Position numbers and translations under genes: made by a program. A stretch of DNA of 64,000 nucleotides. It comes from an uncultured virus (IMG/VR IMGVR_UViG_3300023202_000249) (lineage: Duplodnaviria > Heunggongvirae > Uroviricota > Caudoviricetes). Where the stretch lies: IMG/VR virus record IMGVR_UViG_3300023202_000249. One strand, given 5' to 3'. Numbering within the stretch: the first letter of the stretch is position 1; the number at the start of each line of letters is the position of its first letter. Positions 4,976 to 36,958 of the stretch are shown one piece after another. Below the pieces are notes generated by a model, which searched no databases, was not told the DNA's origin, and saw only the letters and a program-made list of their open reading frames with translations.

Positions 4976-4995
4976 GTCTGGTCTCCCATTCTATG

Positions 4996-5073
4996 GCTCT
5001 TATTGGTGCCCCGTTGGTGTCGCGCCACGGGCAACGGCGCTCCAAACAGGCTGATTAGCCAGCCTGGGACATC
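4996..5073. repeat. ~78-bp direct repeat D, copy 1 (two hairpins)
   Basis: Matches 6070-6148 except for one G. Confidence 0.95.
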
Positions 5074-5082
5074 AGGCATCTC

Positions 5083-5511
5083 CTACCGCCCAGCGGCAGC
5101 CCAGTAGGAGTCCTTAAGTAGCTCGACCGGCTTGAATCGGCACGGGACGATCGACCAGCCACAATCCAGGTTTCCGCAAAGCTTCTTGCGGAGCTTCGCA
5201 AGGCTCTGCCGCTCGCCCTTCAGGTAGTGCTTGCCGTTACCGACAATGCAGGCATACATCGTCTTGCCGAGTATAGTCTCGCCCAGCGCGTCGACGGCCA
5301 TGTCCGCCGTGCATCCCCATTCCTGTTCGATTCGCCCAAGGTATTTACAGATCGCGAAGTCGCGCATTTTGCTTACGCCCTTGTCGCTGTACTTCAGGTG
5401 CTTCCGGTATTCCGGATTGCCCTTTAAAAGCGAGACTAAATGCTGCCCAAGTAGCCTGATCGTCTCGCCGCTTACTGACCTTACGGGTGTTTTTCTCTTT
5501 CGCTTTGCCAT
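5083..5511 (-). CDS. hypothetical protein
   Basis: GAGGAGG RBS; operon context. Confidence 0.75.
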   Translation of the reverse strand: MAKRKRKTPVRSVSGETIRLLGQHLVSLLKGNPEYRKHLKYSDKGVSKMRDFAICKYLGRIEQEWGCTADMAVDALGETILGKTMYACIVGNGKHYLKGERQSLAKLRKKLCGNLDCGWSIVPCRFKPVELLKDSYWAAAGR

Positions 5512-5526
5512 CTGCCTTCCTCCTCT

Positions 5527-5805
5527 TTACAGTAGTTTACTCAACTCAACTAGAGCGCCGAATGCCATCACAGTGAGCATCGGTAGCCATCCAAAACCCA
5601 CGACGTGGGCGCGCTTGCGTCGCCACGACAAGGGCACAACCCAGTATCCACTATCCGAGTCGCGAACCTCGAAGGGTTCATCCCATGACTCGGATAGAAT
5701 TCGCGCCGTGTAGCGCGCCGCGACTGGGCATTGCTCGCGGGCGCTGCGCGCGTTTGTATCTACGATGAAATCATACTGACTGAGTTGCATCTCGAATGCT
5801 TCCAT
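5527..5805 (-). CDS. hypothetical protein with a C-terminal transmembrane segment
   Basis: GGGAG RBS before ATG 5805; hydrophobic C-terminus. Confidence 0.65.
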   Translation of the reverse strand: MEAFEMQLSQYDFIVDTNARSAREQCPVAARYTARILSESWDEPFEVRDSDSGYWVVPLSWRRKRAHVVGFGWLPMLTVMAFGALVELSKLL

Positions 5806-5829
5806 TGTCGTTCTCCCGTTTTGCGGAGC

Positions 5830-5889
5830 GCCCAACAAGGCGCTCCAGTTTACGCTCGTTCCTCGCGAAACTGAGCTTGATCGTTAGCT
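5830..5889 (+). other. attC-like recombination site
   Basis: GCCCAAC aaggcgctCcagtttAcg...cgaaactgagcttgatc GTTAGCT: 60-bp imperfect palindrome with extra C and A in the 5' arm. Confidence 0.8.
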
Positions 5890-6069
5890 GTCTTCTTCCA
5901 CTTCTACCCACTCACCATCTACGAATTGCGCCTAGCGCGGGAATAAAACTAGCCCTAAATCTGTCCATCTCTCTAGCCTCCACAGCTAACAATTAATTGG
6001 CAACAGGTGAGGAACGCACGCGGCAACGACGGCCACGGGATCGTCCATGTCAACGCCTTCCATTCCCGC

Positions 6070-6148
6070 GCTCTTATTGGTGCCCCGTTGGTGTCGCGCC
6101 ACGGGGCAACGGCGCTCCAAACAGGCTGATTAGCCAGCCTGGGACATC
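6070..6148. repeat. direct repeat D, copy 2
   Basis: See 4996-5073. Confidence 0.95.
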
Positions 6149-8540: not shown

Positions 8541-8646
8541 TCGTTCGGCGCGGGCTCATTCCCGCGCTCTCTCACTGCCCCGAGCCCCTGCGCGCCGTCA
8601 CGCGCGCCAGGGGCTGGAGTCGACCTTGCCGGGGTCAGGCCTCGGC
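8541..8646 (-). repeat. Leader repeat A (two hairpins next to the RBS), full copy
   Basis: Identical to 10832-10937 and similar to 8893-8998; partial copies at 7335-7373, 10280-10300, 11133-11168, 11757-11795 and 28238-28275 (+). Confidence 0.95.
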
Positions 8647-8874
8647 AAGGTCGACTCCAGCCTCGTCAGCGTCGCACGCAATAATGACATGCGCGTCGTC
8701 TCCGTTGTCTCGGATGACGAGCCTCCACGCCGGCGGCTCGTTCTGCAGCAGGTTTACTGCTGCCTCGGTCTCGAGTCTCGCCAGCGTGGAGGCGTTCTCC
8801 ACTGCCACATAGATATCTATGTGGCGGGGCAATGACTTAATAATGTCTCTCAATGCCTCATGCTTGTATCGCAT
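8635..8874 (-). CDS. hypothetical protein
   Basis: Lies between two A repeats; GGGAG RBS. Confidence 0.7.
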   Translation of the reverse strand: MRYKHEALRDIIKSLPRHIDIYVAVENASTLARLETEAAVNLLQNEPPAWRLVIRDNGDDAHVIIACDADEAGVDLAEA

Positions 8875-8892
8875 GTCTGTCTCCCTCTGCTC

Positions 8893-8998
8893 TCGGCGCC
8901 GGGCTCATTCCCGCGCCGCTCTCAATGCCTCGAGCCCCTGCGCGCCATCACGCGCGCCTGGGGCTGGAGTCGACCTTGCCGGGGTCAGGCCTCGGCGC
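8893..8998 (-). repeat. Leader repeat A, second full copy
   Basis: Direct comparison with 8541-8646. Confidence 0.95.
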
Positions 8999-9608
8999 CT
9001 TCATCCAGCAGGATGCCGGCGATCTCGGTGTAGCCGCAACGGCGCGCCAGCTCCAGCGGCGTGCGGCCGCCGGCGTCGCGGGCGTCGACCTCCGCGCCGG
9101 CATCCAGCAGCCGGCGGACGATCTCGGCGTGGCCAAACATAGCCGCCAGGTGCAGCGGCGTGCGGGCGCCGGCGGCGGTGCGGGCGTCGACCGAGGCGAG
9201 GACATCCAGGAGGATGCGCACGATCTCGGTGCGGCCCGTCTTCGCCGCCAGATGCAGCGGCGTGCGGGAGTCGTCCTCGGCGCGGGCGTCGACGACCGCG
9301 CCGGCATCGATCAGCTGGCGGACGATCTTGGCGTGGCCCTCCTCCGCCGCCCAGTGGAGCAGCGTTTGGCCGCCGGCGTCGCGCGCGTCGACGTCCGCGC
9401 CGGCAGCGATCAGCCGGCGGAGCCACTCTATGGCCTCCTCGCAGGCCTCCGCAGTCTGCGCGAGGTCGCGGGCGTCGGTCTCATCGTCATCCTCGATGGC
9501 CTCGCGCAACCCCTGCCGCAGATCGTCGATGTCCACAGACAGGGAATCTACGTCTACGTCTCTGATCGTGATGGCCACATCCCGAGGGCCTGTGACTTCT
9601 ATTTTCAT
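8985..9608 (-). CDS. Ankyrin-repeat protein
   Basis: Four TPLH-type ankyrin units (TLLHWAA, TPLHLAA x2, TPLELAR) with GAxVDAR linkers. Confidence 0.95.
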   Translation of the reverse strand: MKIEVTGPRDVAITIRDVDVDSLSVDIDDLRQGLREAIEDDDETDARDLAQTAEACEEAIEWLRRLIAAGADVDARDAGGQTLLHWAAEEGHAKIVRQLIDAGAVVDARAEDDSRTPLHLAAKTGRTEIVRILLDVLASVDARTAAGARTPLHLAAMFGHAEIVRRLLDAGAEVDARDAGGRTPLELARRCGYTEIAGILLDEGAEA

Positions 9609-9650
9609 GGTTTTCTCCTCTCTCTCGCGGACGCGATTCCAAGACGCCGC

Positions 9651-10262
9651 TCAACGGGCGTCGTCCATCGCCCTGTCAATCCCTCGGCGGCGAGCCTCCT
9701 CTATGAGCTGGGCGTCCGACACGGACGCCAGATGCGGATCGGACGGACCGGCCGACCGCCTGAGCTGACGTTCGAGCCGAATGCGGAGGTCCCGCCGGTC
9801 GTCGGGGTCGTCGAGCCACGCGACGACCTGCCCGCCGGCGCGGACGGACGATCGACCGCCGTCCCCGTGGTCGATCAGACCGCGAATGCGGGCGGCCTCC
9901 GCGAGGGCCACGTCCGCCCACTCGACGGACTCGGGCATCCCGGCGAGGGCCTCTTCGACGGCCGCCGCGAGGTCGTCGGCGTGCTCCTCGGGGACGACGG
10001 CCAGGGCGGCCAGGGCGGCCTCGCGCGGCGTGTCGCCTCGCGCGACCCAAGGGCCGTGCGAGTAATCGATTTGAAAGTACCCCTGATTTCCTCCGTACTG
10101 CGCCGCTAGTTCGGCGCGGTACGGACGACCGCGCCGGCAGACGTCGATCTCGCAGGTGATCGACGACTGGAATCCGCCGGGCGGATCGCAGCGCCCAGCG
10201 TCGGCGGATCCGAGGCGGAGGCGCGATATTTTCGGGGTCGTGGTGGTGGTCGTGGTGCTCAT
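9651..10262 (-). CDS. hypothetical protein
   Basis: GAGGAG RBS after the A hairpin; very GC-rich ORF. Confidence 0.75.
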   Translation of the reverse strand: MSTTTTTTTPKISRLRLGSADAGRCDPPGGFQSSITCEIDVCRRGRPYRAELAAQYGGNQGYFQIDYSHGPWVARGDTPREAALAALAVVPEEHADDLAAAVEEALAGMPESVEWADVALAEAARIRGLIDHGDGGRSSVRAGGQVVAWLDDPDDRRDLRIRLERQLRRSAGPSDPHLASVSDAQLIEEARRRGIDRAMDDAR

Positions 10263-10288
10263 GGTTGTCTCCTCTCTCTGGCGCGGGC

Positions 10289-10462
10289 TCATTCCCGCGC
10301 CTTTCCTGCGTTCATGGTTAATGGCAGCCCGCTAACGCGGAAGCATTTTCCGTCCTCTAATCGCTCGACGTCGATTGTGCCCATGCCGTGATGCTCGAGG
10401 ATCCGGCAGCGCTCGACCGACTCGCCGTAGATCTTGATGTAGATGTAGTCACCTGGTTTCAT
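10289..10462 (-). CDS. small hypothetical protein (57 aa)
   Basis: Manual translation MKPGDYIYIKIYGE...GKARE*; stop lies in the A hairpin loop; GGGAG RBS. Confidence 0.65.
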   Translation of the reverse strand: MKPGDYIYIKIYGESVERCRILEHHGMGTIDVERLEDGKCFRVSGLPLTMNAGKARE

Positions 10463-10566
10463 GTCTGTCTCCCTTGCGCGCCCCGATTGGGCGCGCTCTC
10501 TCTCAATGCCCCATTTATAAGCGTGGGGCGCGGCTTATCCCTGGACTGTGCGCATACGCTGCGGGA

Positions 10567-10815
10567 TCACAGCGAGCCGGAACTTACGGCCATAGCGTAG
10601 CGCAGTGCTTCCGCAGCCTTCTCACTTTCATTCGCATCCCCATCCCGCTCTATGCGGGCTAGCTCTCCCAGATCGAGTGCTTCCGCCAATTCTTTGGGAG
10701 TGCTTTGGACAACGTCTCCCTCTGAATCCAGAAAAGCCAGCGTGAATGTTTCGCACGTTCGCAGGCAGAGCGTCCTACCGTCTTTCCCGCGCACCTGTGT
10801 TATCTTTATTTTCAT
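10567..10815 (-). CDS. hypothetical protein
   Basis: MKIKITQ start after an A repeat and GGGAG. Confidence 0.7.
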   Translation of the reverse strand: MKIKITQVRGKDGRTLCLRTCETFTLAFLDSEGDVVQSTPKELAEALDLGELARIERDGDANESEKAAEALRYAMAVSSGSL

Positions 10816-10831
10816 GGTTTTCTCCCTCGTT

Positions 10832-10937
10832 TCGTTCGGCGCGGGCTCATTCCCGCGCTCTCTCACTGCCCCGAGCCCCTGCGCGCCGTCACGCGCGCCA
10901 GGGGCTGGAGTCGACCTTGCCGGGGTCAGGCCTCGGC
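10832..10937 (-). repeat. Leader repeat A, third full copy
   Basis: Identical to 8541-8646. Confidence 0.95.
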
Positions 10938-11126
10938 GCCGGCATCCAGCAGGACACATTTTCGATCCTGAAAGTCTGCCGGTATTCCACAGTCCTGGAA
11001 TGCCTCTACGATCTCGCCTTCGGTCCAGGTGCCTCTCTCTCGGGCGGCGGCCAGGATCTCTGAGGCCGAATGCCCGGCCTCAAGGGCCCGGCGGATACTT
11101 CGACCACCTCGTATTTTCAGTTCCAT
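10926..11126 (-). CDS. Hypothetical protein with an ankyrin-gene-like tail
   Basis: Ends LLDAGAEA*, like 8985-9608 (LLDEGAEA*). Confidence 0.7.
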   Translation of the reverse strand: MELKIRGGRSIRRALEAGHSASEILAAARERGTWTEGEIVEAFQDCGIPADFQDRKCVLLDAGAEA

Positions 11127-11156
11127 GGTTTTCTCCCTCTGCTCTTGGCGCCGGGC

Positions 11157-11744
11157 TCATTCCCGCGCTTTCCCTTCGATCGCTCCAAAATCCCACGATG
11201 CAACGCGCATCTTGCGGGCTAACCCATCATCTCCAGCAATGGCGACTAGTTCGCAGCTGGCTGGAGCGATCCAATATTCGGGTCTGGATTGGTTCCCTAC
11301 GCGCGTTCCGGCGTAGCGCGTATTTTTATACAAAAAACTATGGCAATCGTAATCATAGGCGTACTCAGGTACGCCTTTCAGGACAACGGCTAGCTTTTTG
11401 GCGCGCACAAACTGCGCCGCGCCAATATCGGTAGCACAGATGTGGCCACCGATGTCCATGAAATCATCACGCCAGCCATCATTCAGCACATGTACATAAT
11501 ATCCCACCTCCTTCGGAGCGCGGATACGCGCTCCGCGCATGGCATATTCATCGTACAAAGCGTAAAAATAAAACTCGTCTCCATCGTCATCTTCAATGCA
11601 TATTATTTCAGTACTATACTCGCTTTCATCCGCGCATGGCATAACGTACAGCAACGGGTGCCGTTCCGCCGCTTGGATTACGTACTTCAGCATCCCGGCT
11701 GAAGCTTTCGCGCGAATATATTTTGCTACGTTTTCAATATTCAT
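11157..11744 (-). CDS. hypothetical protein, first gene of the leftward operon
   Basis: Follows the promoter and an A hairpin; ends GKARE* in the next A hairpin. Confidence 0.8.
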   Translation of the reverse strand: MNIENVAKYIRAKASAGMLKYVIQAAERHPLLYVMPCADESEYSTEIICIEDDDGDEFYFYALYDEYAMRGARIRAPKEVGYYVHVLNDGWRDDFMDIGGHICATDIGAAQFVRAKKLAVVLKGVPEYAYDYDCHSFLYKNTRYAGTRVGNQSRPEYWIAPASCELVAIAGDDGLARKMRVASWDFGAIEGKARE

Positions 11745-11812
11745 GGTTTTTTCTCACTCGTTTCGTTCGGCGCGGGCTCATTCCCGCGCTCTCTCTCTAA
11801 CCTTCTTAATCC

Positions 11813-11840
11813 ATAATACAGCATGGATCGGCGGTGTCAA
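11813..11840 (-). promoter_or_regulatory. sigma70-type promoter of the leftward operon
   Basis: TTGACA-16 bp-TATTAT on the minus strand. Confidence 0.7.
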
Positions 11841-11841
11841 C

Positions 11842-12032
11842 TTCAGAAAATGACCATTTTCTGAAATATCTTATAAACCCTTGCCATATAAGGGTTTATA
11901 AGAATGAAGTTTTTATGGCTTCTCATAACTCATCTGCCTGAAAGGGTTTACAAGAATGGCCCATCGGCCCTCGCCTAGGATCTACAGTATAAAATAGGTA
12001 GCCTGGAATAGGTAGCCTAAAAATAGGTAGCC
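11842..12032. promoter_or_regulatory. Two palindromes plus three AATAGGTAGCC direct repeats (operator/iteron-like)
   Basis: ttcagaaaat..attttctgaa; tcttataaaccctt..aagggtttataaga; repeats at 11993, 12007 and 12022. Confidence 0.55.
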
Positions 12033-12506
12033 CGGCGTGGTTTCACCCTCCGTATCACAGCAAATATAATCCGATAGAAAGGTCATGGGGCATCTTAGAG
12101 CAACACTGGGGCGGCGAACTCCTAGATTCAATCGAAAAGACTCTCGGACTGGCCAGAAGCATGACCTATCGCCAAATGCACCCCATTGTCCGATTGGTAA
12201 GAAAGGTCTACAAAAAAGGGGTCCGTGTTGGAAAATCAACAATGAGGAAAATAGAGGAGGCCATTCAAAGAGATCCCAAACTGCCACGATGGTCCATCAC
12301 CATTCCGCCATATACATAAAAAGGAATCTGGGATTTTTGGCAGTCGCCCTCGCTAGAAAACCTCCCGACAGTACAGAACGTCAAATCCATGGCCAGGTGC
12401 GTACTGGGCGCACGCACCTATTTCGTGCTTGACCGCTGCGCTACCTGCTGTAGATTCATACGAGGAGCGGCGCTGGGCGCCGGAAGTGCTGGACCAGGAG
12501 GAATAA

Positions 12507-12664
12507 AGATCAGGGGGGTTCGGGCGTTGGTGCCCGTTCCAGCCTGTTAGCGCAGGAAGGGGCAGTGGCCAATGTCGGCAGTGGCAGTCGCGAATGCCAA
12601 CCGGCAGACCACGAAACGGTGAAAGGCCGTTCCTCGAGGGTTCGATTCCCTCCCCCCCTGATCT
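12507..12664 (+). ncRNA. tRNA-like RNA with an extended acceptor stem and a large internal domain
   Basis: 12-bp stem agatcagggggg/cccccctgatct; D-like arm cgggc-gttggt-gcccg; T arm gaggg-TTCGATT-ccctc. Confidence 0.65.
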
Positions 12665-12895
12665 CAGTAGACTACTGCGGAGCGGAGCATCGGCATGGGT
12701 AAACGTAGTCTGGCTAACGTCCAAGGTCACCGGGCCGCGGCCGATGACCTCGACCTCAATTAAACGCGCCGACCGCGGCTCCGGTGCACCGTTTTGTTCA
12801 CCCATTCTTCGGAGTCTCCCATGTTGTTTCAAGAATCACTATCAATCGCGGACGGTGTACATCGCTGGTGTGCGGCCGCATCCACTGCGGGAGCA

Positions 12896-13297
12896 ATGTT
12901 GCCTGCTTACGTCCAGGATTTTATTCAGCGTCTCGATTGGGACGCGGAAGGCGATGAGCGTGTCGATATGTACGACATCGTCGAGGCCGTCACGGATGCG
13001 TGCCGTGAATGCCAAGAGCAGCACGTCGATGATTGCGATGGGACGTATTTTCCGTGTCCTCGTGGGGTCAGCGTTCATTGCAGCCCGAACGGAGGCGTGG
13101 ACATCGTGTGGGATAGCGATTCCCACAACACAGTGTTGCGATTCGTTGCCGAGTCCCGTGACCGAGCGACGATGGTGGGCGGATTCGCGAATCACGGCAG
13201 CGGTCTGCGTCGGGATTACGTTGTTTTGCTGTGCGAGACAGAGCATGAGGATTCCGACCGGCTCCGCGCGTGCCGTGGCGAGTTGGTATCGGGGTGA
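12896..13297 (+). CDS. hypothetical protein (start uncertain)
   Basis: Part of ORF 12794-13297; GGGAG before ATG 12896. Confidence 0.5.
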   Translation: MLPAYVQDFIQRLDWDAEGDERVDMYDIVEAVTDACRECQEQHVDDCDGTYFPCPRGVSVHCSPNGGVDIVWDSDSHNTVLRFVAESRDRATMVGGFANHGSGLRRDYVVLLCETEHEDSDRLRACRGELVSG

Positions 13298-13299
13298 AC

Positions 13300-13626
13300 A
13301 TGAGAATATACGAACTTCGCGTTGACGGCGTGGACTGCTACTACTCCCTCGGCCTGTCCGCGTCCTTAGAGGCCCTCAAGCAACAAGTTGAGGCAATGGA
13401 CGGCCCGGCGCATGAATACGCACACGGAACAGAGCAGCTGGAAATCTACGCGCGAGAATTAGGAGAGCTGCAGAGCGATTGCGCTGCCCCCGGCGTGCTA
13501 GTCTGCTCTGCCAAACGCTATTCGTATGTGTCGGATGATGACAAACTCAAATGGCGCACTGAGTGGGCGGCTGATGCGGATAACGCCCAAGTTGAGTTTC
13601 AAGAAGGGAGCGAAAACAAGAAATAG
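13300..13626 (+). CDS. hypothetical protein, duplicated in inverted form at 17400-17673
   Basis: MRIYELRVD...KLKWR occurs twice. Confidence 0.75.
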   Translation: MRIYELRVDGVDCYYSLGLSASLEALKQQVEAMDGPAHEYAHGTEQLEIYARELGELQSDCAAPGVLVCSAKRYSYVSDDDKLKWRTEWAADADNAQVEFQEGSENKK

Positions 13627-13655
13627 CTGAAAAAACTTCCTACGGGGTGAGAACA

Positions 13656-13922
13656 ATGATTCAGAGAAAAGTAACCCTGCATGTAGAGCCGACGCCGCAA
13701 GAGTTGGCTTTTGAATTCTCCCAGATGAGCGACAAGAATCAAGCCGTATTCTTCAATGAGTTGGCGCGTCTGGTGGCCGAATGGGAAAAGCCGTTTTGCT
13801 TTCAGTTGCAATACATAACGGATCACCCGGCATTGACCAGTGAAGGCCGCGAAGTGATGCGCCAGATTGGCGAGTACGGCGAAGTGATCTCGCCCAACGC
13901 AGAAAGTGAGGTTTCGGAATGA
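13656..13922 (+). CDS. hypothetical phage protein
   Basis: Ends inside the attC-like site with an ATGA overlap. Confidence 0.75.
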   Translation: MIQRKVTLHVEPTPQELAFEFSQMSDKNQAVFFNELARLVAEWEKPFCFQLQYITDHPALTSEGREVMRQIGEYGEVISPNAESEVSE

Positions 13923-13958
13923 CAGAGCGAAGGCGTTGCCTCCCTCGCCTTGTTCTGT
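13892..13958 (-). other. attC-like site
   Basis: Minus strand ACAGAAC aaggcg...GTTGGGC; imperfect palindrome. Confidence 0.65.
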
Positions 13959-14236
13959 GGACTTGGCAGGGTTGCGGGTATCTGGAGGGCTACGGCTACC
14001 ATCCCGGCTCGGGAAGCATGGCGTTTCTAATCGCCCTTGGTGCCGCTGCTGGCGCGGATGGAGGATGGGCTGGGTCGCTCTTTGGAGCAGGCGCAATGGC
14101 TACAACCTTCGGCTCTCTCTACCTCGTCGGAGCTTACTGTAGAGCGAAGGATTTTCATTCACATAACGACCAAGGTAACCGGGTGCCGGAGAAAGACTAT
14201 GGATTCAGAAACGACGCCGACCGGCACTCCGGTTGA
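13919..14236 (+). CDS. small membrane protein in a cassette
   Basis: Two hydrophobic segments; starts and ends within attC-like sites. Confidence 0.6.
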   Translation: MTERRRCLPRLVLWTWQGCGYLEGYGYHPGSGSMAFLIALGAAAGADGGWAGSLFGAGAMATTFGSLYLVGAYCRAKDFHSHNDQGNRVPEKDYGFRNDADRHSG

Positions 14237-14250
14237 CCGCCTTGTTCGCC
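14161..14250 (-). other. attC-like site
   Basis: Minus strand GGCGAAC aaggcggtCaaccggAgtgccgg...ccggcacccggttaccttggtc GTTATGT. Confidence 0.8.
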
Positions 14251-14654
14251 AGTTTCAGTGCCCGGGGTGCGTCTGCGGGGGAGACACTGACTGCGGCGTT
14301 TACACGTACGACCAGAACGAGCGCCGATGCGTAAGTCATGTTCTTGGGACGATGATCGGGCTGGGCAATTCGATTGCCCTCGGATTACCGAAGGGCTTCC
14401 ACAAGCCAGGTTGGGACAAGGAACGCAAGCGGGCACGCAACAGGATTGACGTGCGGCTGTGGCCGCAGGGCGATCATCCAGAGTGGGACCGCCTGAACGT
14501 CGCTGTGTGGGCGATGGAGCAAGACGGCCACTTGTTCGTTCGCACATTTGCGCCCCGTGTAAACGTGTCGTGGGTGGACGTGATAGAAGGAGGAACGCTT
14601 GCGATGGTTCCAGATGCGATCAACGTGGCCGAGTTTATTGACGAGATTGATTGA
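14199..14654 (+). CDS. Cys-containing hypothetical protein in a cassette
   Basis: GGAG and ATG lie in the attC loop; FQCPGCVCG motif. Confidence 0.75.
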   Translation: MDSETTPTGTPVDRLVRQFQCPGCVCGGDTDCGVYTYDQNERRCVSHVLGTMIGLGNSIALGLPKGFHKPGWDKERKRARNRIDVRLWPQGDHPEWDRLNVAVWAMEQDGHLFVRTFAPRVNVSWVDVIEGGTLAMVPDAINVAEFIDEID

Positions 14655-14657
14655 CCT

Positions 14658-14716
14658 GGCGAACGTTTCGGGTGAGAGTCGCGGTACTCCGCGTACTCTC
14701 GACCCGGTTGTTGGCA
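14658..14716 (-). other. attC-like site (59 bp)
   Basis: Minus strand TGCCAAC aaccgggtCgagagtAcgcgg-agta-ccgcgactctcacccgaaac GTTCGCC, with the two classic extrahelical positions. Confidence 0.85.
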
Positions 14717-14735
14717 GTTCTTTGGAGGACACGGA

Positions 14736-15491
14736 ATGAAGATCGCATACGAAAACGAGAACGTCCAGTTGTGGCACGGCGACTGCCGGGAGTGGTCCGG
14801 TAAGGCCGATGCCGTGCTGACTGATCCGCCATACGGCATTGAAGGCGCACGCGGCACGATCAACCGGGCCCGCAACAAGGGCGGATATGGTGAAGAATGG
14901 CAAGACACGCCGGATTATGTGGCCGACGTGTGCGCCGCCACGGTGCGCCGACTGATTGAGGCATGCGAGGCTGTGGTGTTGACGCCAGGCATCAAAAACA
15001 TGATGTGGTATCCGCAACCGGACAGCTTCGGATGTTTCTACCAACCGGCAGCGGTTGGATTGCAGTCGTTCGGGAACATGGACGCACAACCGATCTTTTA
15101 CTATGGCCGCAACTTGACCGGAAAGAACATGGGGAAGCGATGCAGTTTCACGTTGACCGAGGCACCGGAGAAGAACGGGCACCCGTGCGTCAAGCCGTTG
15201 CAAGCGTGGAAGGTGTTGCTGTGCCAGTTCACGAACGAGGGCGACACCGTGCTGTGCCAGTTCACGAACGAGGGCGACACCGTGCTGTGCCAGTTCACGA
15301 ACGAGGGCGACACCGTGCTTGACCCGTTCTGCGGGAGCGGCACGACGCTGATCGCCGCGCTGGAGACCGGGCGCAAGGCCATCGGCATCGAGATTGACGA
15401 GCGGTGGGTTGACGTAGCGGTGAAACGCCTTGAGCGGTGGCACGCGCAAGGGCGGTTCGACTTTGGTACTGCCAACGAAGAATTATCATAA
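14736..15491 (+). CDS. DNA N6-adenine/N4-cytosine methyltransferase (beta class)
   Basis: TDPPY, HPCVKP, VLDPFCGSGTT, GIEI. Confidence 0.95.
   Translation: MKIAYENENVQLWHGDCREWSGKADAVLTDPPYGIEGARGTINRARNKGGYGEEWQDTPDYVADVCAATVRRLIEACEAVVLTPGIKNMMWYPQPDSFGCFYQPAAVGLQSFGNMDAQPIFYYGRNLTGKNMGKRCSFTLTEAPEKNGHPCVKPLQAWKVLLCQFTNEGDTVLCQFTNEGDTVLCQFTNEGDTVLDPFCGSGTTLIAALETGRKAIGIEIDERWVDVAVKRLERWHAQGRFDFGTANEELS
15217..15319. repeat. 33-bp perfect triple tandem repeat inside the methyltransferase gene
   Basis: LCQFTNEGDTV x3. Confidence 0.95.
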
Positions 15492-15670
15492 TCATCAAGC
15501 AGGGTGATCGACGCTGAGCATTTTATAGACAATCACTCTCGTAAAATAAAGCAACGCGATAAACATCGCCATGTATTGCCAGCTGAATCCCTGCATCGCC
15601 TCGATACCAACGGCGCCCATGTACACGCCGTTAATAAATAGTACCGCTAAAAGAATCAGTTGCTGAATCA

Positions 15671-16042
15671 CTAACATTGCTGTCCCCTCCACTCGGTGTA
15701 AGACTGGTATTGCTGCCACAGCGAATACCACTGGGCGTCCATGTACTGTCGCCAATGGCCCGGGAATGCCTTGGCGACTTCCATGTCATCTGCGAGTGCA
15801 AGCTTGTCCATCGGGACGATCTTGTTGATCTCCTTGGCTACCGCTCGGGCTGTATCGTGGCCGCGTACCACGCCAACGGTTTTCTTGGTTGGAATATGCA
15901 GAATGCATGCGTCTTCGTCGCGGTCCTTGTCGTGCCACCAGGTCAACACGGCGAGAAAGAAGCCGACGTTGCGGCCAATGCCGATCGGTGTGTAAGGCGG
16001 CTCGTCCGATCCAAGCGCGACACTCATCTCGTAAACAGTCAT
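15671..16042 (-). CDS. hypothetical protein
   Basis: GGAG RBS; operon context. Confidence 0.7.
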   Translation of the reverse strand: MTVYEMSVALGSDEPPYTPIGIGRNVGFFLAVLTWWHDKDRDEDACILHIPTKKTVGVVRGHDTARAVAKEINKIVPMDKLALADDMEVAKAFPGHWRQYMDAQWYSLWQQYQSYTEWRGQQC

Positions 16043-16092
16043 CTCAATCTCCAGCCTTAAGGGGCACCTATTCTATCGCCAAAGCGGAAAAC

Positions 16093-16485
16093 TCAAAGAT
16101 GTTTTTGAATGCCCCTCAGATAGCAGAACGATTGAGGTGGGCGTGCCACACAAAATGCGGAAAGGCTAAGGGGAGTCGTGTATCGCTTCGGATGCGCCAC
16201 TTCGATCGCGTATCCCACGTCCCGGTTCTTGAAGTATTCGTCAAAGAAATCCCGCGCTACGCAAGCTCCGTCTCGGGTCCGTTCCCATAGATCGTCTGGG
16301 TGTGCCTCGATGATGCCCTTGACCTCGACCTCCCCTACGACGCGCTTGACCGGGCTCGATGCATAAATTACGACGCGGGTCACACTTCTGTCTCGGAAAA
16401 TCTTGCGTCGCAGCTCGAATCGCTTCTCGCCATCGAGAATTGCTTCGGCATACTCGGGCTTGATGGACAATAAAACGCGGGCCAT
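16093..16485 (-). CDS. ASCH/PUA-domain protein
   Basis: LLSIKPEYAEAILDGEKRFELRR, IYASSP and PPQSFCY are typical of ASCH proteins. Confidence 0.9.
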   Translation of the reverse strand: MARVLLSIKPEYAEAILDGEKRFELRRKIFRDRSVTRVVIYASSPVKRVVGEVEVKGIIEAHPDDLWERTRDGACVARDFFDEYFKNRDVGYAIEVAHPKRYTTPLSLSAFCVARPPQSFCYLRGIQKHL

Positions 16486-16646
16486 GTGCTATCTCCCCTT
16501 CGGCGGGCTTGGACTATGAGATCCGGGGCGCGACTTCCCAAGAGCAACCCTTGCCGAACTCTGCATCTGCGCTTTTCGTAAGTCCTTTCTGCTCATATTT
16601 CTACATCCTGTTTTCTGTTAACCAAATGCCCCTGTTAACCCGTGGG

Positions 16647-17033
16647 TCAAGAGTTCGCAGATTCAAATTTCTCCATAAATTGGCATTTCATTTTTGGGTG
16701 CGCCAGGATGAAGTCCAAAAGACACACTAATTTGCAACGGTAGCCAACTCCTTCTCCTTGGCCTAAGCATGCGTTTGGACCCATGCGGCCACCGTTATCT
16801 TTCCACTTCCAGCCATTAGAGGTACGAAACACCTCACCCAAATAGGTACGCCCGTTTTCTGCAACTTCTGGCGAACGCTTACGATAAATCTTGTGTGTCG
16901 CGCCGCGCTGCACTGAAAGCCACCAATTGCGACCCTCAAGAGCTTTCTTGCGTTCATTCCAACTCATACGCGCAAAGTATCCACGCAACCACAATTCTGG
17001 GCATCGCATTCTATGACTGTTAACCATTTTCAT
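16647..17033 (-). CDS. hypothetical protein
   Basis: ORF with a purine-rich RBS. Confidence 0.6.
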   Translation of the reverse strand: MKMVNSHRMRCPELWLRGYFARMSWNERKKALEGRNWWLSVQRGATHKIYRKRSPEVAENGRTYLGEVFRTSNGWKWKDNGGRMGPNACLGQGEGVGYRCKLVCLLDFILAHPKMKCQFMEKFESANS

Positions 17034-17084
17034 GTTTCTTTCCCCTTCCCGAAGTCGGCGACATTGGTATCCCAGACGACGCGC

Positions 17085-17333
17085 TCAACTTCCGGCATCG
17101 CGGATCTCCTCGATCGCCTCTTCGGCGGGCAGACCATCCGTTAAATCCATTATTCCGCGCCGCTGCGCCTCCTTCAGTCGCTCGAGAAATTCATCGCCCT
17201 GGGGCGTCGGACGTGCAACGGCCCTTTCCGCTTCTCGAACGCACGCATGGCACGCCGACTGATCGCCAGCGTAAAACGCCATGAGTTTGTACGGCTTCCC
17301 ACAAATCGGGCACTTCACAGTTTTATCCAACAT
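17085..17333 (-). CDS. small Zn-finger-like protein
   Basis: CPIC...CHAC. Confidence 0.65.
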   Translation of the reverse strand: MLDKTVKCPICGKPYKLMAFYAGDQSACHACVREAERAVARPTPQGDEFLERLKEAQRRGIMDLTDGLPAEEAIEEIRDAGS

Positions 17334-18264
17334 GATTGATACTCCAACCGCCGCCTAACAAATCGGTCAACGGGAGCGGCGGTATCCCCGTTACCTTACT
17401 GCGCCATTTGAGTTTGTCATCATCCGACACATACGAATAGCGTTTGGCAGAGCAGACTAGCACGCCGGGGACAGCGCAATCGCTCTGCAGCTCTCCTAAT
17501 TCTCGCGCGTAGATTTCCAGCTGCTCTGTTCCGTGTGCGTATTCATGCACTGGGCCACCGTCGGGTCCGTCCATTGCCTCAACTTGTTGCTTGAGCGCAT
17601 CTAAGGACGCTGACAGGCCGAGGGAGTAGTAGCAGTCCACGGCGTCAACGCGAAGTTCGTATATTCTCATGTTGTGCTTACTGCATTTGCGCGCCAGTTC
17701 CACCAGCCATCGGGCGAACCCCGGCGGGGTGGCCTCGCGCTCCCATTGCGGAACCCGCGACTTGAATCGCGGATGCCCAATCCGCACGCCATGCCCTTGC
17801 GAAATGCAGTGCGTCGGCTCGCCTTCTCTGTGCGGCATTGCCGGCACGTCCACTGGCTCGCATCCGACCACGTAGAGCCGCGTCGGTTTTTTGGCCCGGT
17901 GTCCCCAATGGAATTGATCCACCGTCAGGAGAAATCCAACGTCGCCAGCGGCACCACACCCGCAGTGCTCAAACAACGCGCTACCCTTTGGGTGTTCCAG
18001 CACGCCACCGCATCGCCTCACCTGCTTCACCGCCCACGGACCAAGGGCATGTTCTTCCGGCCGCTTGGGTATTTGGTGACGAAAGTTTCCCCACGTCCGA
18101 CACGGTGGATGTGCAATCACCGGCCCCGTGCCAGCAAACGTCCGCGCATCCCGCCAGCGGTCGTAACAGTCAAGCCCCATCGCCTTGTAGATGCTCTGCT
18201 CTCGAACAAACAGCACAACAAGACGGTCGAGCGTACTGCCAATTCCGCTTCGCTCCATTGTCAT
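17323..18264 (-). CDS. C5-cytosine methyltransferase-like domain fused to a copy of the 13300 gene
   Basis: IAHPPC, VLEHP, GHRAKKPTRLY and REATPPGFARWL, followed by MRIYELRV... Confidence 0.7.
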   Translation of the reverse strand: MTMERSGIGSTLDRLVVLFVREQSIYKAMGLDCYDRWRDARTFAGTGPVIAHPPCRTWGNFRHQIPKRPEEHALGPWAVKQVRRCGGVLEHPKGSALFEHCGCGAAGDVGFLLTVDQFHWGHRAKKPTRLYVVGCEPVDVPAMPHREGEPTHCISQGHGVRIGHPRFKSRVPQWEREATPPGFARWLVELARKCSKHNMRIYELRVDAVDCYYSLGLSASLDALKQQVEAMDGPDGGPVHEYAHGTEQLEIYARELGELQSDCAVPGVLVCSAKRYSYVSDDDKLKWRSKVTGIPPLPLTDLLGGGWSINHVG

Positions 18265-18285
18265 CCGCTCACCTCATCGTTGGGC
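18213..18285 (+). other. attC-like site
   Basis: GCACAAC aagacggtCgagcgtA...cgcttcgct...cgctcacctcatc GTTGGGC. Confidence 0.85.
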
Positions 18286-18554
18286 AGCTCAATGCAGGCA
18301 CCGACAGCATCGCCGCCAGGGGTGGGGAAGGTAGAGCCTGTGCACCACTTCCAGCCGTGCGCGACCCTAATCCAGTATCCACCCATAATGGCGTGCGCCT
18401 TGGTCCCGATAGGGTATTCGCTCCAGGGGCGATCTACGGGCACGCGCACGCCGAACATGCGGGTGAGCGCCCAGCCCCCTTGCGGAACCGGCAAGCCGAG
18501 GGCCTTGCGTGCGTCCGCTGCCTGTTGTTCTTTAGCTTCAATGTGGTCGTACAT
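18261..18554 (-). CDS. hypothetical protein in a cassette
   Basis: GGAGG RBS; bounded by matched cores at 18279-85 and 18578-84. Confidence 0.75.
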   Translation of the reverse strand: MYDHIEAKEQQAADARKALGLPVPQGGWALTRMFGVRVPVDRPWSEYPIGTKAHAIMGGYWIRVAHGWKWCTGSTFPTPGGDAVGACIELPNDEVSG

Positions 18555-18577
18555 TTTTCCTCCGGTTGAAAGTTGCT

Positions 18578-18714
18578 GCCCAACAAGGGCAATTCAGCGG
18601 ACGCTACCGCGCCGCAGAGTCCGCGTTCATCGGAAAGGATGATGCGCGGCATGCTGATTCGTTTGGCATCACTTTTTCCTTTGGCCCATCGGGCCGGTTA
18701 TCGGCAGCGTTCGC
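18578..18714 (+). other. attC-like site (right boundary uncertain)
   Basis: GCCCAAC aagggcaattcagcggacgctaccgcgccgc; candidate ends GTTTGGC at 18661 or GTTCGCC at 18708. Confidence 0.55.
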
Positions 18715-19098
18715 CATATACACAGTCCCACCACCTTTGCGTATCAGCGCGTAGAATCGTTCCATCGTTGTCCCCGCCGGTATTACGACGGGCTTCCCGG
18801 GGCTGTATCGACTTGTCCGCAACCACGCGACAGCCCCGGCATTAATCTGTTCCACACTCCACGGGCTATTGCAATGCCCGAAGGATGGCGTCTCGAAGTC
18901 GCCGTCCCACGCGACCTTGATAATCTCAAACTTTTCGTGCTTGCAAGGACCGTATGGCGTTCCCGCGTTGTGTTCATACGGTGCATCGTCAAAATCATCT
19001 CCCCATGCATCTTCCAGCGCCTGCGTCGTAAAGTAGGCCCACGGCCCGTCTACATAACACAAAACGGGGTTGTCTTTATTTGGTGCAGTCATATTCAT
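18604..19098 (-). CDS. hypothetical phage protein
   Basis: GAGGAGG RBS; LCYVDGPWAYFT, WGDDFDDAPYEHNAG, NSPWSVEQIN. Confidence 0.75.
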   Translation of the reverse strand: MNMTAPNKDNPVLCYVDGPWAYFTTQALEDAWGDDFDDAPYEHNAGTPYGPCKHEKFEIIKVAWDGDFETPSFGHCNSPWSVEQINAGAVAWLRTSRYSPGKPVVIPAGTTMERFYALIRKGGGTVYMANAADNRPDGPKEKVMPNESACRASSFPMNADSAAR

Positions 19099-19104
19099 CC
19101 TCCT

Positions 19105-19275
19105 CAATAGCTCTCGCTGTGTTCTGCTCGATGACAAATGGCACACAGCAAGTCGCATTTGTCCAATTCAACGCGGCATTTTCCCATGCGTAGTTTTTAC
19201 TTGTTGGCAAAAACAACTTGGTTGCTGGGTCTCTGTGGTGAAAGTCAAAAGCAAAGGCGTTACTCCCGGTGTACG
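19105..19275 (-). pseudogene. HNH endonuclease fragment, frameshifted
   Basis: FDFHHRDPATK in one frame and ELDKCDLLCAICHRAEH in another. Confidence 0.6.
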
Positions 19276-19279
19276 CGTA

Positions 19280-20155
19280 TCAGGCGAAAAGTAATTGCTG
19301 CTCGATACGTTTACGAGCGATTTCGCAATACTCTTCATTTATCTCGATTCCGAGAAACTTGCGGCCAAGCTCTCTGGCCATCTTTGTCGTCGTTCCGCTG
19401 CCGTTGAATGGATCTAAGACTATGTCTCCGGGGTTGCTCCAAGACAAGATATGATCGCGGGCTAGTGCCTCGGGGAATATGGCGGGATGCTTGTGTGCTA
19501 TGGTATCTGTTGACGAGTGCCTGAAGCCTGCTTCATATTCCCACACATTTCCCCTTGCTCCCATTTCAGGAGCTATTCGACCAAAGCTATGGCTTTTTTT
19601 CATGCTCCCGTCTTTGCATCGCAGGGTGGGTGAATACTTTTTCCCTGCGTATGAATTCGGCTTATCCCTCAAAAGGTGAAGCGTCTTTGGCCTGCCTCTG
19701 GAAAACACAAACATATATTCGTGCACTTGCGGATAAACGCGATGCCCGTGACGTGGAAATTCACCCTTTTTTCGGTAAATCATCGTATCAAGCAACTTCA
19801 TCCCGCCGTCGACAAATGCAATGGCTTGCTTGAATGAAGTCAGGCTTTCGCAGTGGTCCCTACTTGTGTCTGACACTACCCAAACAATAATTGCTCCATC
19901 CTTTATAATGCGGCACAAATTCCTGCGCACCGAATCGAAGTCAAAGACAAATCCTCCGTATTCTCTGGCGTCGTCGTATGGTGGCGAGGTAACTACAAGA
20001 TCGATGCACTCGCGAGGCAGTTGGCCCATTACGTCACAGTTGTCACCGCATACGATCTTGTCGCCTGACAACAAGTCATTGCAGCGAACACTATCAGCCG
20101 TTCCGCTTGGAGCGTCGGTCGTGTCAGCCTGGGTTTTAGTTTGTTCGTCGTTCAT
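19280..20155 (-). CDS. DNA N4-cytosine/N6-adenine methyltransferase (beta class)
   Basis: VTSPPY, HPAIFP, LDPFNGSGTT. Confidence 0.95.
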   Translation of the reverse strand: MNDEQTKTQADTTDAPSGTADSVRCNDLLSGDKIVCGDNCDVMGQLPRECIDLVVTSPPYDDAREYGGFVFDFDSVRRNLCRIIKDGAIIVWVVSDTSRDHCESLTSFKQAIAFVDGGMKLLDTMIYRKKGEFPRHGHRVYPQVHEYMFVFSRGRPKTLHLLRDKPNSYAGKKYSPTLRCKDGSMKKSHSFGRIAPEMGARGNVWEYEAGFRHSSTDTIAHKHPAIFPEALARDHILSWSNPGDIVLDPFNGSGTTTKMARELGRKFLGIEINEEYCEIARKRIEQQLLFA

Positions 20156-20166
20156 CGTGTTAGTCG
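20066..20166 (+). other. attC-like site containing the methyltransferase start codon (right end uncertain)
   Basis: TGACAAC aagtcattgcagcgaac...GTTAGTC. Confidence 0.5.
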
Positions 20167-20211
20167 CTCTATTTCTCTATGCCAACGCTCGTTCCCACAC
20201 TGGCCTACAGT

Positions 20212-20514
20212 TCATCTCGCTGGCACCAAACGCAACCCAGAACCTTTGCACGACCAGCAAACAACGTCGCATTCTTCTATGTAGTCGTAGAGATTTTTTT
20301 TCCCATCACAGATTCGACATGCATCCCTAGCTCGGCACGTCCAACACTCATAGTACTGTCGCGGATCTATTTGGTCTCCCATGTCCTCGGTCATTAGCCC
20401 GCATTTGCTCGTCGCGTGGCCTTCCTCGAAACCGTGAGCAATGCCATTGGGGTGGCACCGCCAGATAACAATCGGTTGCACGGGCTCCGTGGACGACGTG
20501 TTTTCTGTACTCAT
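20212..20514 (-). CDS. Cys-rich hypothetical protein
   Basis: Three CxxC pairs; start lies inside an attC-like site (AGATAAC at 20463). Confidence 0.65.
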   Translation of the reverse strand: MSTENTSSTEPVQPIVIWRCHPNGIAHGFEEGHATSKCGLMTEDMGDQIDPRQYYECWTCRARDACRICDGKKNLYDYIEECDVVCWSCKGSGLRLVPAR

Positions 20515-20582
20515 GGTCTTTCACTCCCCAGAAGGTGGCGCTGGTTCATAGTTGGCGGCGAAGAACTCGGCCGCAACATACA

Positions 20583-20993
20583 TTACTCCTCCACGCGCTC
20601 TCCGGACTTTATAATGTACCATCCGCCGATATTGAGCCGGTCGATTTCTCCGTCTAGCCGGCGCACCTTAACGACCTTCTCTTCGGCGACGAACGGCGTC
20701 CGTAGTCCGCGAGCAACCGCGATGTCCGGACGGATGACGTTGTAGCCTTCGAGGTCACGCTCCTCGGTGCGGTGGTCGAGGTCGCCATCAACCTTGACCG
20801 CGATCAGCACCTTGACGTCATCAAGAACCTTCGCGACCTCGACCACGCGCTGGCGCTTCGTCGTCTGCTCTACCAACGTGATCCGATCCTTCACCTTCGG
20901 TCCGATCGTCACGCACGCCGTCAAGGCCACCAAGAGCGTCATTGAGATCGCTGCGGCTATCGATCTCAGGGTCTTTATCTCTCCTCCCGACAT
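20583..20993 (-). CDS. putative lipoprotein
   Basis: Signal peptide with LTAC lipobox; GGAGG RBS. Confidence 0.65.
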   Translation of the reverse strand: MSGGEIKTLRSIAAAISMTLLVALTACVTIGPKVKDRITLVEQTTKRQRVVEVAKVLDDVKVLIAVKVDGDLDHRTEERDLEGYNVIRPDIAVARGLRTPFVAEEKVVKVRRLDGEIDRLNIGGWYIIKSGERVEE

Positions 20994-29375: not shown

Positions 29376-30127
29376 TCAGCAGACTTTCTGCGCACGGCTC
29401 AGGGAATGTCGCCAAAAGAAATAGAGGAGGGGCGGCGCGGATAGCGCCGTACCCTCAATCCGCTGGTTGGCGGTTTCGTCGGCCAGCGGGGAAAGGACGA
29501 AATGAAAGCGAGATTGATTCGACTGCTGCTTGCCGGGGCGATGATCTTTGGCGGCTGCGCGATGGACAGCCGCAGGATGGCGCGTCGGCGTCGGCGTGTT
29601 TCTTGTGTTGTGGGGCCATTGCATGGAGAAGCATCAACGCTTCCGCGGCCGTTGGTAGACTTGTTCGTCAATGCATGGGATGGTCAACTTCCCAATACAC
29701 TTGATGCCTCCACTCGCGGACTGTGGCTTGGTTTCCTTGATGCCGTGTTCTCCAGCCATTACCTCGATCCTCCTTGCCTTGGGCCATGTGTGTGTGTCCC
29801 TGTCCGCCAGCTGCCCATTGCAGCCGCCCAGCGCGCACCGCGTGGAGATAGGTGCCCCCATGTATCCCAGGGATGGGGCTGGCCCTGATGGCGGAACAAC
29901 GGGCGAGTTTGATATTCATTGGTTCGAGTTGGCTGGCGCCCGCGTCCCGAAGTTGTGCGTGTACGACGATGCGTGGTCCGCATTGTGGCAATTCCGTGAC
30001 GTGCTGGAAGCGCTGAAGGACATTGACGGCCAGAGTGCGCCACCGGAAAAGATTTGCGAGTTGCTGGTGTCGTGCGGTGTCCACGACGCGAGTGCTAAGG
30101 CGCTAGCTAAGCAAAGGAGATAGAGCA

Positions 30128-36880: not shown

Positions 36881-36958
36881 TGGTAGCGGGAACAGGATTC
36901 GAATCTGCAACCTCTGGGTTTAGCAGCCCAGCGCGCTGCCATATTGCGCCACCCCGCG
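36881..36958 (-). tRNA. Initiator-like tRNA body with an 8-nt anticodon loop CUGCUAAA (atypical or pseudo-tRNA)
   Basis: CGCGGGG/UCCCGCU acceptor with C1:U72 mismatch; GCGC D stem; CUGGG/CCCAG anticodon stem; UUCGAAU T loop closed by an A:C mismatch; encoded ACCA. Confidence 0.85.

Follow-up and report, generated by a model that had tools for sequence, protein, structure and literature searches.

Clusters of integron recombination sites have been described in phage genomes. In 10,705 phage genomes, Qi et al. (2023; PMC9892861) counted 17 clusters of attC sites without an integron integrase (CALINs), which occur in virulent and in temperate phages, together with three complete integrons and one In0; methylases were among the cargo, and phage sites recombined under IntI1. 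The element described here lies in a 64,000-nucleotide stretch of DNA from an uncultured virus of the Caudoviricetes (IMG/VR IMGVR_UViG_3300023202_000249; this whole stretch is called the window), which by its gene content looks like a phage genome. It appears to be a cluster of attC sites whose cassette genes run in the reverse of the usual orientation, and at some of these sites the stop codon of one gene and the next one's start codon lie within the attC site itself. Phage attC clusters are already known; the reversed cassettes with a stop and a start in their sites would be the new element.

The usual view of integron cassettes is that they rely on the platform promoter Pc and are inserted in one orientation, and attC hairpins in mRNA are usually regarded as obstacles to translation. 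In canonical cassettes, the attC site occupies the 3' region of each cassette and the genes are on the top strand (PMC11511950), whereas in the window the genes are on the bottom strand and attC lies upstream. Phage TJE1, one of the cases of Qi et al. (2023), likewise differs from the window in having an attC site at the 3' end of each open reading frame (ORF). In other respects the window resembles what that survey describes, namely phage attC clusters without an integrase and N6_N4_Mtase cargo, and the complete integron that it reports from a Mu-like Shewanella prophage may be compared with the Mu-like contig L003 discussed below. The main text of Qi et al. (2023) contains neither "start codon" nor "translational", and a single, unrelated "stop codon".

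A translational function has been described at the attI1 site, where ORF-11, which acquires its stop codon from the inserted cassette, couples translation of the first cassette; short ORFs within attC are described as well (PMC8876359). According to that account, ORF-11 and ORF-18 of attI1 resemble the window in that an ORF spans the crossover, the incoming cassette provides the stop, and termination-reinitiation has been proposed. They differ in that a short leader peptide, attI, the top strand and only the first cassette are involved, whereas in the window type it is the proteins of the cassettes that extend over the attC crossover, at every such junction and on the bottom strand. The reverse-integrase integrons typical of Spirochaetota (PMC9668308), compared here by description only, are similar in that integrase and cassette ORFs are co-directed, but in L003 the integrase-to-attC geometry is canonical and it is the ORFs that are reversed. 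In the limited open-access literature that was covered, no description was found of cassette ORFs that lie on the bottom strand of attC and start within its loop.

Identity of the sites

In the bottom strand of an attC site, as described by Nivina et al. (2016; PMC5027507), the R' box reads 5'-RYYYAAC and is followed by five or six spacer bases. Position 16 is extrahelical and usually occupied by G; beyond a 6-bp stem, position 23 or 24 holds a conserved T that is extrahelical too. These bulges are on the arm opposite AAC, and a whole site measures 57-141 bp. When the rules were coded as a scan, with spacers of 4-6 bases allowed, the window gave six matches, compared to a mean of 0.4 in 10 mononucleotide shuffles. 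One match is at 55939-56064, and the other five are the robust sites that were also found by a covariance model, R3. This model was trained on 12 sites of two related viral contigs only (L001 and L003, see below) and was run over both strands of the window, where it detected the five sites with E-values from 8.5e-8 to 3e-4; their reverse strands scored far lower or not at all.

The strongest site is W4 (18213-18285, - strand; 41.1 bits, E 8.5e-8, compared to 19.0 bits on the + strand), with R' GCCCAAC and R'' GTTGTGC, whose minimum-energy fold shows the R and L boxes paired, with bulges. W3 (14658-14716, + strand) scores 39.1 bits (E 2.6e-7; 12.9 bits on the other strand) and has nine of nine rule-scan pairs, G at position 16, T at position 23 and a folding z-score of -4.67. 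W6 (5830-5889, - strand; 32.8 bits, E 8.9e-6) was also found by both methods and lies outside the range covered by the initial annotation of this DNA. W2 (14161-14250, + strand; 27.4 bits, E 1.7e-4, nine of nine pairs, z -4.08) has R' ACATAAC, R'' GTTCGCC, and extrahelical G and T at positions 16 and 23, respectively, numbered from the 3' end. W1 (12712-12802, + strand; 26.5 bits, E 3e-4, nine of nine pairs) is 82% identical to W2. All five have AAC and GTT, eight or nine of nine Watson-Crick pairs, T at position 23 and, at position 16, either G (four sites) or C (one site). Their spacers are five or six bases on the AAC arm and five on the other, their lengths are 59, 60, 73, 90 and 91 bases, and their loop sequences are not conserved.

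As a control, the class 1 integron estX-psp-aadA2-cmlA1-aadA1-qacL of a Salmonella plasmid (NC_011092), which was reached by tblastn with the L003 integrase, was searched in the same two ways. R3 recovered all six of its attC sites (E 4.8e-7 to 2.6e-3; the next match had E 1.2), and so did the rule scan. The class 1 sites and those of the window are alike in R and L boxes, a 5-6-base spacer, the extrahelical base at 16, the 6-bp stem, the T at 23, lengths of the order seen here (59-91 bases), and mutual recognition by one covariance model. Unlike canonical attC sites, the window type may have a long loop (up to about 30 bases) that contains a Shine-Dalgarno motif and a start codon. On the basis of structure, cross-recognition and the integrase of L003 (see below), the five sites of the window are judged to be genuine attC sites.

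The comparative evidence began with a pair of 90-base elements, 12712-12802 and 14161-14250 (W1 and W2), which provided the first solid lead: in addition to their overall identity they differ by three compensatory pair changes in the distal stem, and their likeness is not in a common reading frame. In an alignment of 17 elements, chosen by hand and aligned with MAFFT by sequence alone, every element has AAC close to its 5' end and GTT close to its 3' end (17 of 17), 92.3% of cells are paired, and a common inner helix of 8 bp carries one bulged base. Seven of the eight inner (L-box) pairs are altered on both sides, and the covariation of 0.417 compares to 0.114 in shuffles (none of 500 as high) and at most 0.122 for slid partners. 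The 12 sites from outside the window, taken alone, give 0.532 versus 0.136, again with AAC and GTT in all 12. An earlier MAFFT alignment of these non-window sites (A3), in which the 5' L box was wrongly placed for the short ones, gave way to one aligned with model R2 (A4); a first model, R1, built on two sequences, served as a lead only. Scripts that ranked AAC...GTT pairs by folding energy were unspecific and were dropped, and an exact-pattern scan of viral contigs with the consensus of the W1/W2 3' arm found no match.

Among the places named in the initial annotation, 14160-14255 and 14650-14725 fold far better than shuffled sequences (z -4.06 and -5.43), and the others have z-scores from -0.6 to +0.8. 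The attC-like sites proposed there at 15478, 20155 and 20514 have no such support. R3 has no match at 15478 or 20155; no hairpin follows the AAC at 15476-15478 (z +0.39 for 15465-15530), and no model matches there; the match closest to 20155 and 20514, at 20463-20506 on the - strand, reaches 10.9 bits (E 1.7).

A CALIN consists of at least two neighbouring attC sites with no integron integrase in the vicinity; by the IntegronFinder spacing rule, the window qualifies through three robust sites within 2 kb (12712-14716) and no homologue of an integron integrase in the 64 kb. A complete integron has an intI gene, with its IntI-specific domain, adjoining the array; the window has none, and L003 does have intI.

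Orientation and the point of crossover

The strand of the sites was read against controls of known layout. In the NC_011092 integron, the strand detected by R3 is that of intI1 at all six sites and is antisense to the cassette genes, so that it corresponds to the bottom strand. In phage TJE1, the covariance model places the bottom strand of the three sites opposite to the genes, as in the canonical layout. In the window and in the related contigs L001, L003 and L016, the strand on which the genes are read is the modelled bottom strand and the site lies upstream of the ORF; a canonical cassette, with its ORF on the top strand and attC at its 3' end, is found in none of the four. The L003 integrase stands to its site as in the class 1 control, in both strand and side, and it is the ORFs that are reversed. 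The initial annotation had described the cassettes as inserted in antisense orientation and this is correct: the cassettes of the window are antisense to canonical ones.

Because the sense strand is the bottom strand, the crossover (AA|C) falls at the 5' edge of each site. A cassette would therefore bring its own site, Shine-Dalgarno motif and start codon, and would give a stop codon to its upstream neighbour. The initial annotation had the inserted cassette itself gaining a stop, and that part of the proposal has to be reversed.

Translation signals at the sites

Start codons had been placed within sites at 13919, 14199, 18264, 20155 and 20514 (the last three on the - strand), and all five are the first ATGs of real open frames. 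Two of them, 14199 and 18264, are in the loops of robust sites; ATG 13919 is in a doubtful site (W7, 13892-13958), and 20155 and 20514 are in no supported site. At W4, the upstream ORF (18261-18554) takes AAC as Asn and ends as ...PNDEVSG*, and its TGA overlaps ATG 18264 of a 313-residue ORF (ATGA, 18264-18261). The overlap comes directly after the L' box GGTGAGCGG, which occupies the position expected of a Shine-Dalgarno motif. At W2, the upstream ORF takes AAC 14165-14167 as Asn and reaches its TGA (14234-14236) within the 3' arm, and the loop contains GGAG at 14188-14191, seven bases upstream of ATG 14199. The remaining robust sites contain neither a start nor a stop, and the next starts are about 20-26 bases beyond the site. 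W1 is the first site of the + strand gene block, with non-coding DNA before it and the downstream ATG at 12822. W3 is wholly intergenic and lacks any translation signal, with the upstream stop at 14652-14654 and a methylase ATG at 14736 after GGAGG. W6 is preceded by about 320 bases of non-coding DNA, and the gene downstream of it starts at ATG 5804. Among the five robust sites, the general statement that the sites carry translation signals applies to W2 and W4 only. The second stop-start overlap that had been noted, ATGA at 13919-13922, exists as well, but the site loop in which it was placed is that of the doubtful W7.

At 11 of 11 sites in L001, the upstream ORF reads AAC in frame as Asn; the next start is in the loop at seven of these, two are read through in frame, and at two the ORF ends 11 and 20 bases beyond the site. 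Both robust window sites that are entered by an ORF (W2 and W4) are entered in phase 0, as are two weak candidates. Ten sites carry a start: seven of L001, W2, W4 and the doubtful site at 13892. A purine-rich motif is just 5' of the start in all ten, and the phase-0 stop falls between -2 and +5 bases from the start in nine, with W2 (+35) as the exception. In either of the other phases, the frame soon reaches a stop in the 5' arm or else stays open for hundreds of bases.

The terminal peptides listed in the initial annotation (...PNAESEVSE*, ...HNDQGNRVPEKDYGFRNDADRHSG*, ...ANEELS* and ...PNDEVSG*) are present in the sequence, with the upstream frames taking AAC as Asn. The tails are weakly alike, with Asn, a few variable residues and then Val/Ile-Thr/Ser-Gly, because the L' box is read in a fixed phase and its bases co-vary with the opposite arm. 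If the tails belong to the sites rather than to the proteins, homologues should cease to be conserved at the core Asn and resume after GTT, and this is what comparison of the cargo reveals. The phrog_12600 proteins of the window and L001 share one sequence as far as ...AGCACAAC, beyond which they diverge. Downstream of W2, the 151-residue Cys-rich protein (14199-14654, + strand) takes its first 14 residues from the loop and 3' arm of the site, and its relatives match from residue 15, the Leu-Val of CTTGTT. In contigs L004 and L005 these relatives match residues 15-151 only, behind unrelated leaders and with no site upstream. Where a homologue has no palindrome, then, the terminal peptide is not kept as protein either.

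Related contigs and the integrase

The IMG/VR contigs L001, L002/L006 and L003 were reached through relatives of the phrog_12600 protein. L001 has the same kind of element at almost all of its gene junctions. L003 is Mu-like, with terminase, gp27 and GemA genes of Mu type, and at 1991-2992 encodes a protein that scores 288.3 bits on TIGR02249 (the NCBIfam integron integrase; cut-off 265) and is 36.6% identical to IntI1. Eleven further viral contigs contain relatives of this integrase, at 54-65% identity, and in these loci R3 (E up to 0.05) gave five matches in four loci, all five on the intI strand and upstream of intI. The window can be grouped with viral contigs among which are Mu-like phages that encode an integron integrase, and such an enzyme presumably moves cassettes in the phage of the window as well.

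A difference between two of these contigs points to recombination at the sites. L006 and L001 are 100% identical over 105 + 3962 bases, and L006 lacks the 1079 bp between, a block of three genes including one for a Dam-type methylase. The junction is within CGAAC, common to the R' boxes of the L001 sites 941-1009 and 2020-2082, and it keeps the frame. Excision or insertion by attC x attC recombination would yield this difference; the fit does not amount to proof of integrase action. A search for relatives of the long L001 ORF 4164-5942, which by eye may be a terminase gene, returned the same two contigs only.

Within L001, the attC sites 202-257 and 2020-2082 lie wholly inside ORFs and are read through in frame, with the flanking modules forming one predicted protein. 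L016, a viral contig of 44.9 kb, contains an exact duplicate of one unit (attC and a 203-residue ORF, at 3755-4468 and 5201-5914) within its array. Two N6/N4 methylase cassettes, different from each other, lie beside the duplicate units, and the contig has an integron integrase next to them.

The record nearest to the window, G001, has the same sites with the same scores and shows no cassette differences in 12-30 kb; because sites and scores are the same, it is not an independent observation. The stretch is contained in four DNA sequencing runs of one study and in no RNA run listed. Contigs from these four runs showed no joints at the window sites, but do break at the inverted duplication and the 33-base repeat described below.

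Proposed mechanism and alternatives

The best account of these observations is that the window contains a phage CALIN in which the attC sites are genuine and the cassette ORFs reversed, and that some of the sites act as adaptors providing a stop and a start in a fixed phase; a probability of about 0.75 is assigned to this reading. In the mRNA sense, a cassette would consist of C and the rest of the attC hairpin, then the body of the ORF, and finally ...RYYYAA. The unpaired terminal loop of a start-bearing site would supply both the Shine-Dalgarno motif and the cassette's own start. The preceding ORF would cross AA|C in a fixed phase, with AAC as Asn, and then read 6 to 23 codons of the next 5' arm before stopping on or beside the start (ATGA, GTGA or TAATG). 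The translating ribosome would open the hairpin, and the geometry suits termination-reinitiation, so that translation would be coupled at the sites. Such coupling may also explain the antisense orientation, as the initial annotation had suggested.

Several points weigh against this reading. Start and stop occur together in only two of the five robust window sites, and at W2 the frames do not meet but overlap by 38 bases. The integrase-bearing contigs L003, L016 and L022 mostly use a TAA inside R' with the next start outside the site, a layout (...TAA|C) in which the ORF terminates exactly at the crossover; because of this, the start-in-loop design is to be seen as one variant and not as general. 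Neither the 64-kb window (best E 1.7 by tblastn) nor G001 yields an integron integrase. The folding energies of W1, W4 and W6 are unremarkable (z -0.89, -1.43 and -1.03). Finally, the alignment used for R3 (A4) was made with model R2, which had seen the window sites, one alignment (A2) was built from sites selected by eye, and the E-values of the covariance models are only rough.

Some of the same facts would be expected if the attC sites were real but passive passengers, the overlaps, tails and loop starts being by-products of compact operons with neither phase nor coupling under selection. Three of the five robust sites carry no signal, the integrase-bearing relatives have other layouts, and overlaps of the ATGA type and Shine-Dalgarno motifs within ORFs also occur at junctions away from supported sites (13295-13302 and near 20155 and 20514). 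What such a view leaves as coincidence is that the start and Shine-Dalgarno motif are in the unpaired loop at all ten start-bearing sites, that the stop falls on the start in phase 0 only (nine of ten), and that AAC is in phase 0 at 11 of 11 L001 sites beside unrelated upstream ORFs, although the sites of one array may share descent and the 11 are then not independent trials. On balance passive sites are judged unlikely. A good deal less probable is that no integron integrase acts at all and that the sites are attC look-alikes at boundaries left by general or microhomology-mediated phage recombination. The lack of an integrase in the window and G001, the mere five bases common at the L001/L006 junction, and the W5 junction and the fusion at 17673 (see below), which are not clean site-to-site events, are compatible with such an origin. 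Opposed to it are the full attC grammar, including the asymmetric bulges at 16 and 23, the recognition of all six class 1 sites by the same model, and the fact that related viral contigs encode integron integrases beside sites of this kind, arranged in the canonical geometry. The hairpins are on the mRNA-sense strand, W2 and W3 fold strongly, and one outer pair of W1 is maintained only via G-U, all of which might suggest RNA elements unrelated to integrons, such as terminators, RNase processing sites or regulator binding sites. Elements of that sort should hardly be entertained, since the hairpins match no Rfam family and have no T-run after them, and the AAC/GTT ends, the bulge positions, the indel at the core and the link to an integrase would be left unexplained.

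If adaptor sites of the proposed kind operate, a hairpin in front of a gene would not be an obstacle, in that its loop offers a ribosome-binding site and start to which the prior ribosome arrives in a fixed phase. This would explain how promoterless cassettes are expressed in phages without Pc, and how phages could exchange anti-restriction methylases and small accessory genes through integron recombination. The recombination site would at the same time serve as a coding adaptor, one that permits in-frame fusions or even produces them.

A further-reaching version can be offered only tentatively, and is rather doubtful at present. It supposes a lineage of phage integrons with phase-locked bottom-strand cassettes, in which every cassette ends in ...AA|C with AAC read as a codon, every attC site is translated, either as a stop-plus-start or, where stop and start are missing from the loop, as an in-frame linker, and modules are fused in frame. 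It is raised because the read-through of L001 202-257 and 2020-2082, the frame kept in L006 and the 313-residue fusion at 17673 would all fit. If it were true, expression would be coupled from a phage operon promoter without Pc, and integrase recombination would both shuffle gene order and fuse modules in frame, much like exon shuffling.

Other candidate sites, cargo genes and features of the window

The doubtful site W7 (13892-13958, + strand) has cores GCCCAAC and GTTCTGT and is entered by the ORF ending ...PNAESEVSE*. R3 gives it 10.4 bits (E 2.3), the rule scan does not find it, and its minimum-energy fold is another local hairpin; its 29 bits with R2 come from a model whose training set included it. 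At best it would be an eroded attC site. A weak candidate on the - strand at 18578-18667 (R3 span 18578-18715; R2 15.8 bits, E 0.09; R3 11.2 bits, E 1.4) is entered by ORF 18604-19092, which takes AAC as Asn and terminates inside as ...PNESACRASSFPMNADSAAR*. At 29411-29472 (+ strand; R3 19.9 bits, E 0.011; z -3.24), AAA replaces AAC, and this is probably a decayed attC site. The half site W5 (17353-17405, - strand) scores 19.5 bits with R1 and 15.1 bits with R2 (E 0.14) and is not among the R3 matches; its 3' half is intact (ACC, G, CCCGTT, T, R'' GTTAGGC), R' and the spacer are gone, and it begins precisely at the end of an inverted duplication.

That duplication (13297-13563 and 17395-17673, 95-97% complementary) begins, in each copy, immediately downstream of an AAC and extends to the 5' edge of the half site. 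It underlies the 313-residue ORF downstream of W4 (17323-18264, - strand), in which the phrog_12600 domain (residues 15-200, E 3.1e-55) is fused in frame at its AAC (17673) to a copy of gene 13300-13626. By blastp with the cassette proteins, the phrog_12600 gene is a cassette in the window, L001 and L003, each time between unrelated neighbours. The gene directly after W3 (14736-15491, + strand) encodes an N6/N4 DNA methylase (PF01555, E 5.5e-22; phrog_67) that ends as ...ANEELS*. Inside it, at 15217-15329, a 33-base unit is present in three tandem copies at which public contigs break, with the peptide LCQFTNEGDTV repeated just before the DPFCGSGTT motif.

In the wider gene map, 5-26 kb of the window is occupied by small accessory genes, including two N6/N4 DNA methylases, an ASCH protein and the phrog_12600 protein. 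Genes are on the + strand at 12.8-15.5 kb and on the - strand from 15.5 to about 26 kb. Genes for a helicase, a primase zinc ribbon, a PD-(D/E)XK nuclease and HNH proteins follow at 25-37 kb, and large + strand ORFs at 38 to 63 kb, the last of which encodes a Peptidase_S74 protein. Two ankyrin-repeat proteins are encoded on the - strand at 1-957 and 8985-9650 (Pfam Ank, E 2e-39 and 2e-36). A megablast search of 12500-20600 against the phage collection gave no match. Rfam reported one tRNA at the gathering threshold for the whole window, two chance-level matches at 11700-15600 and nothing attC-like, though it is uncertain whether Rfam includes an attC family.

The sole tRNA gene (36881-36958, - strand; Rfam 46.1 bits) is assigned no amino acid by ARAGORN, which reads a four-base anticodon, gcta, and it could be a suppressor-type or frameshift-type tRNA. 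Stop-codon reassignment, raised by this odd tRNA, was set aside because the gene map of the whole window is already coherent under the standard genetic code. Upstream of W1, non-coding DNA at about 12620-12660 (+ strand) resembles a tRNA T-arm (GGTTCGATTCC), with no gene called by ARAGORN or Rfam.

Two further repeats occur in the window. A repeat of about 100 bases is present at about 4990-5079 and 6060-6140, where it gives near-identical peptides in spurious ORFs; one copy is in the non-coding DNA upstream of W6. A 20-base hairpin motif, GCGCGGGCTCATTCCCGCGC, occurs six times (four exact) at 8548-11789 on the + strand, between - strand genes, compared to a chance expectation of 0.02, and public contigs branch at the copy near 11770-11795.

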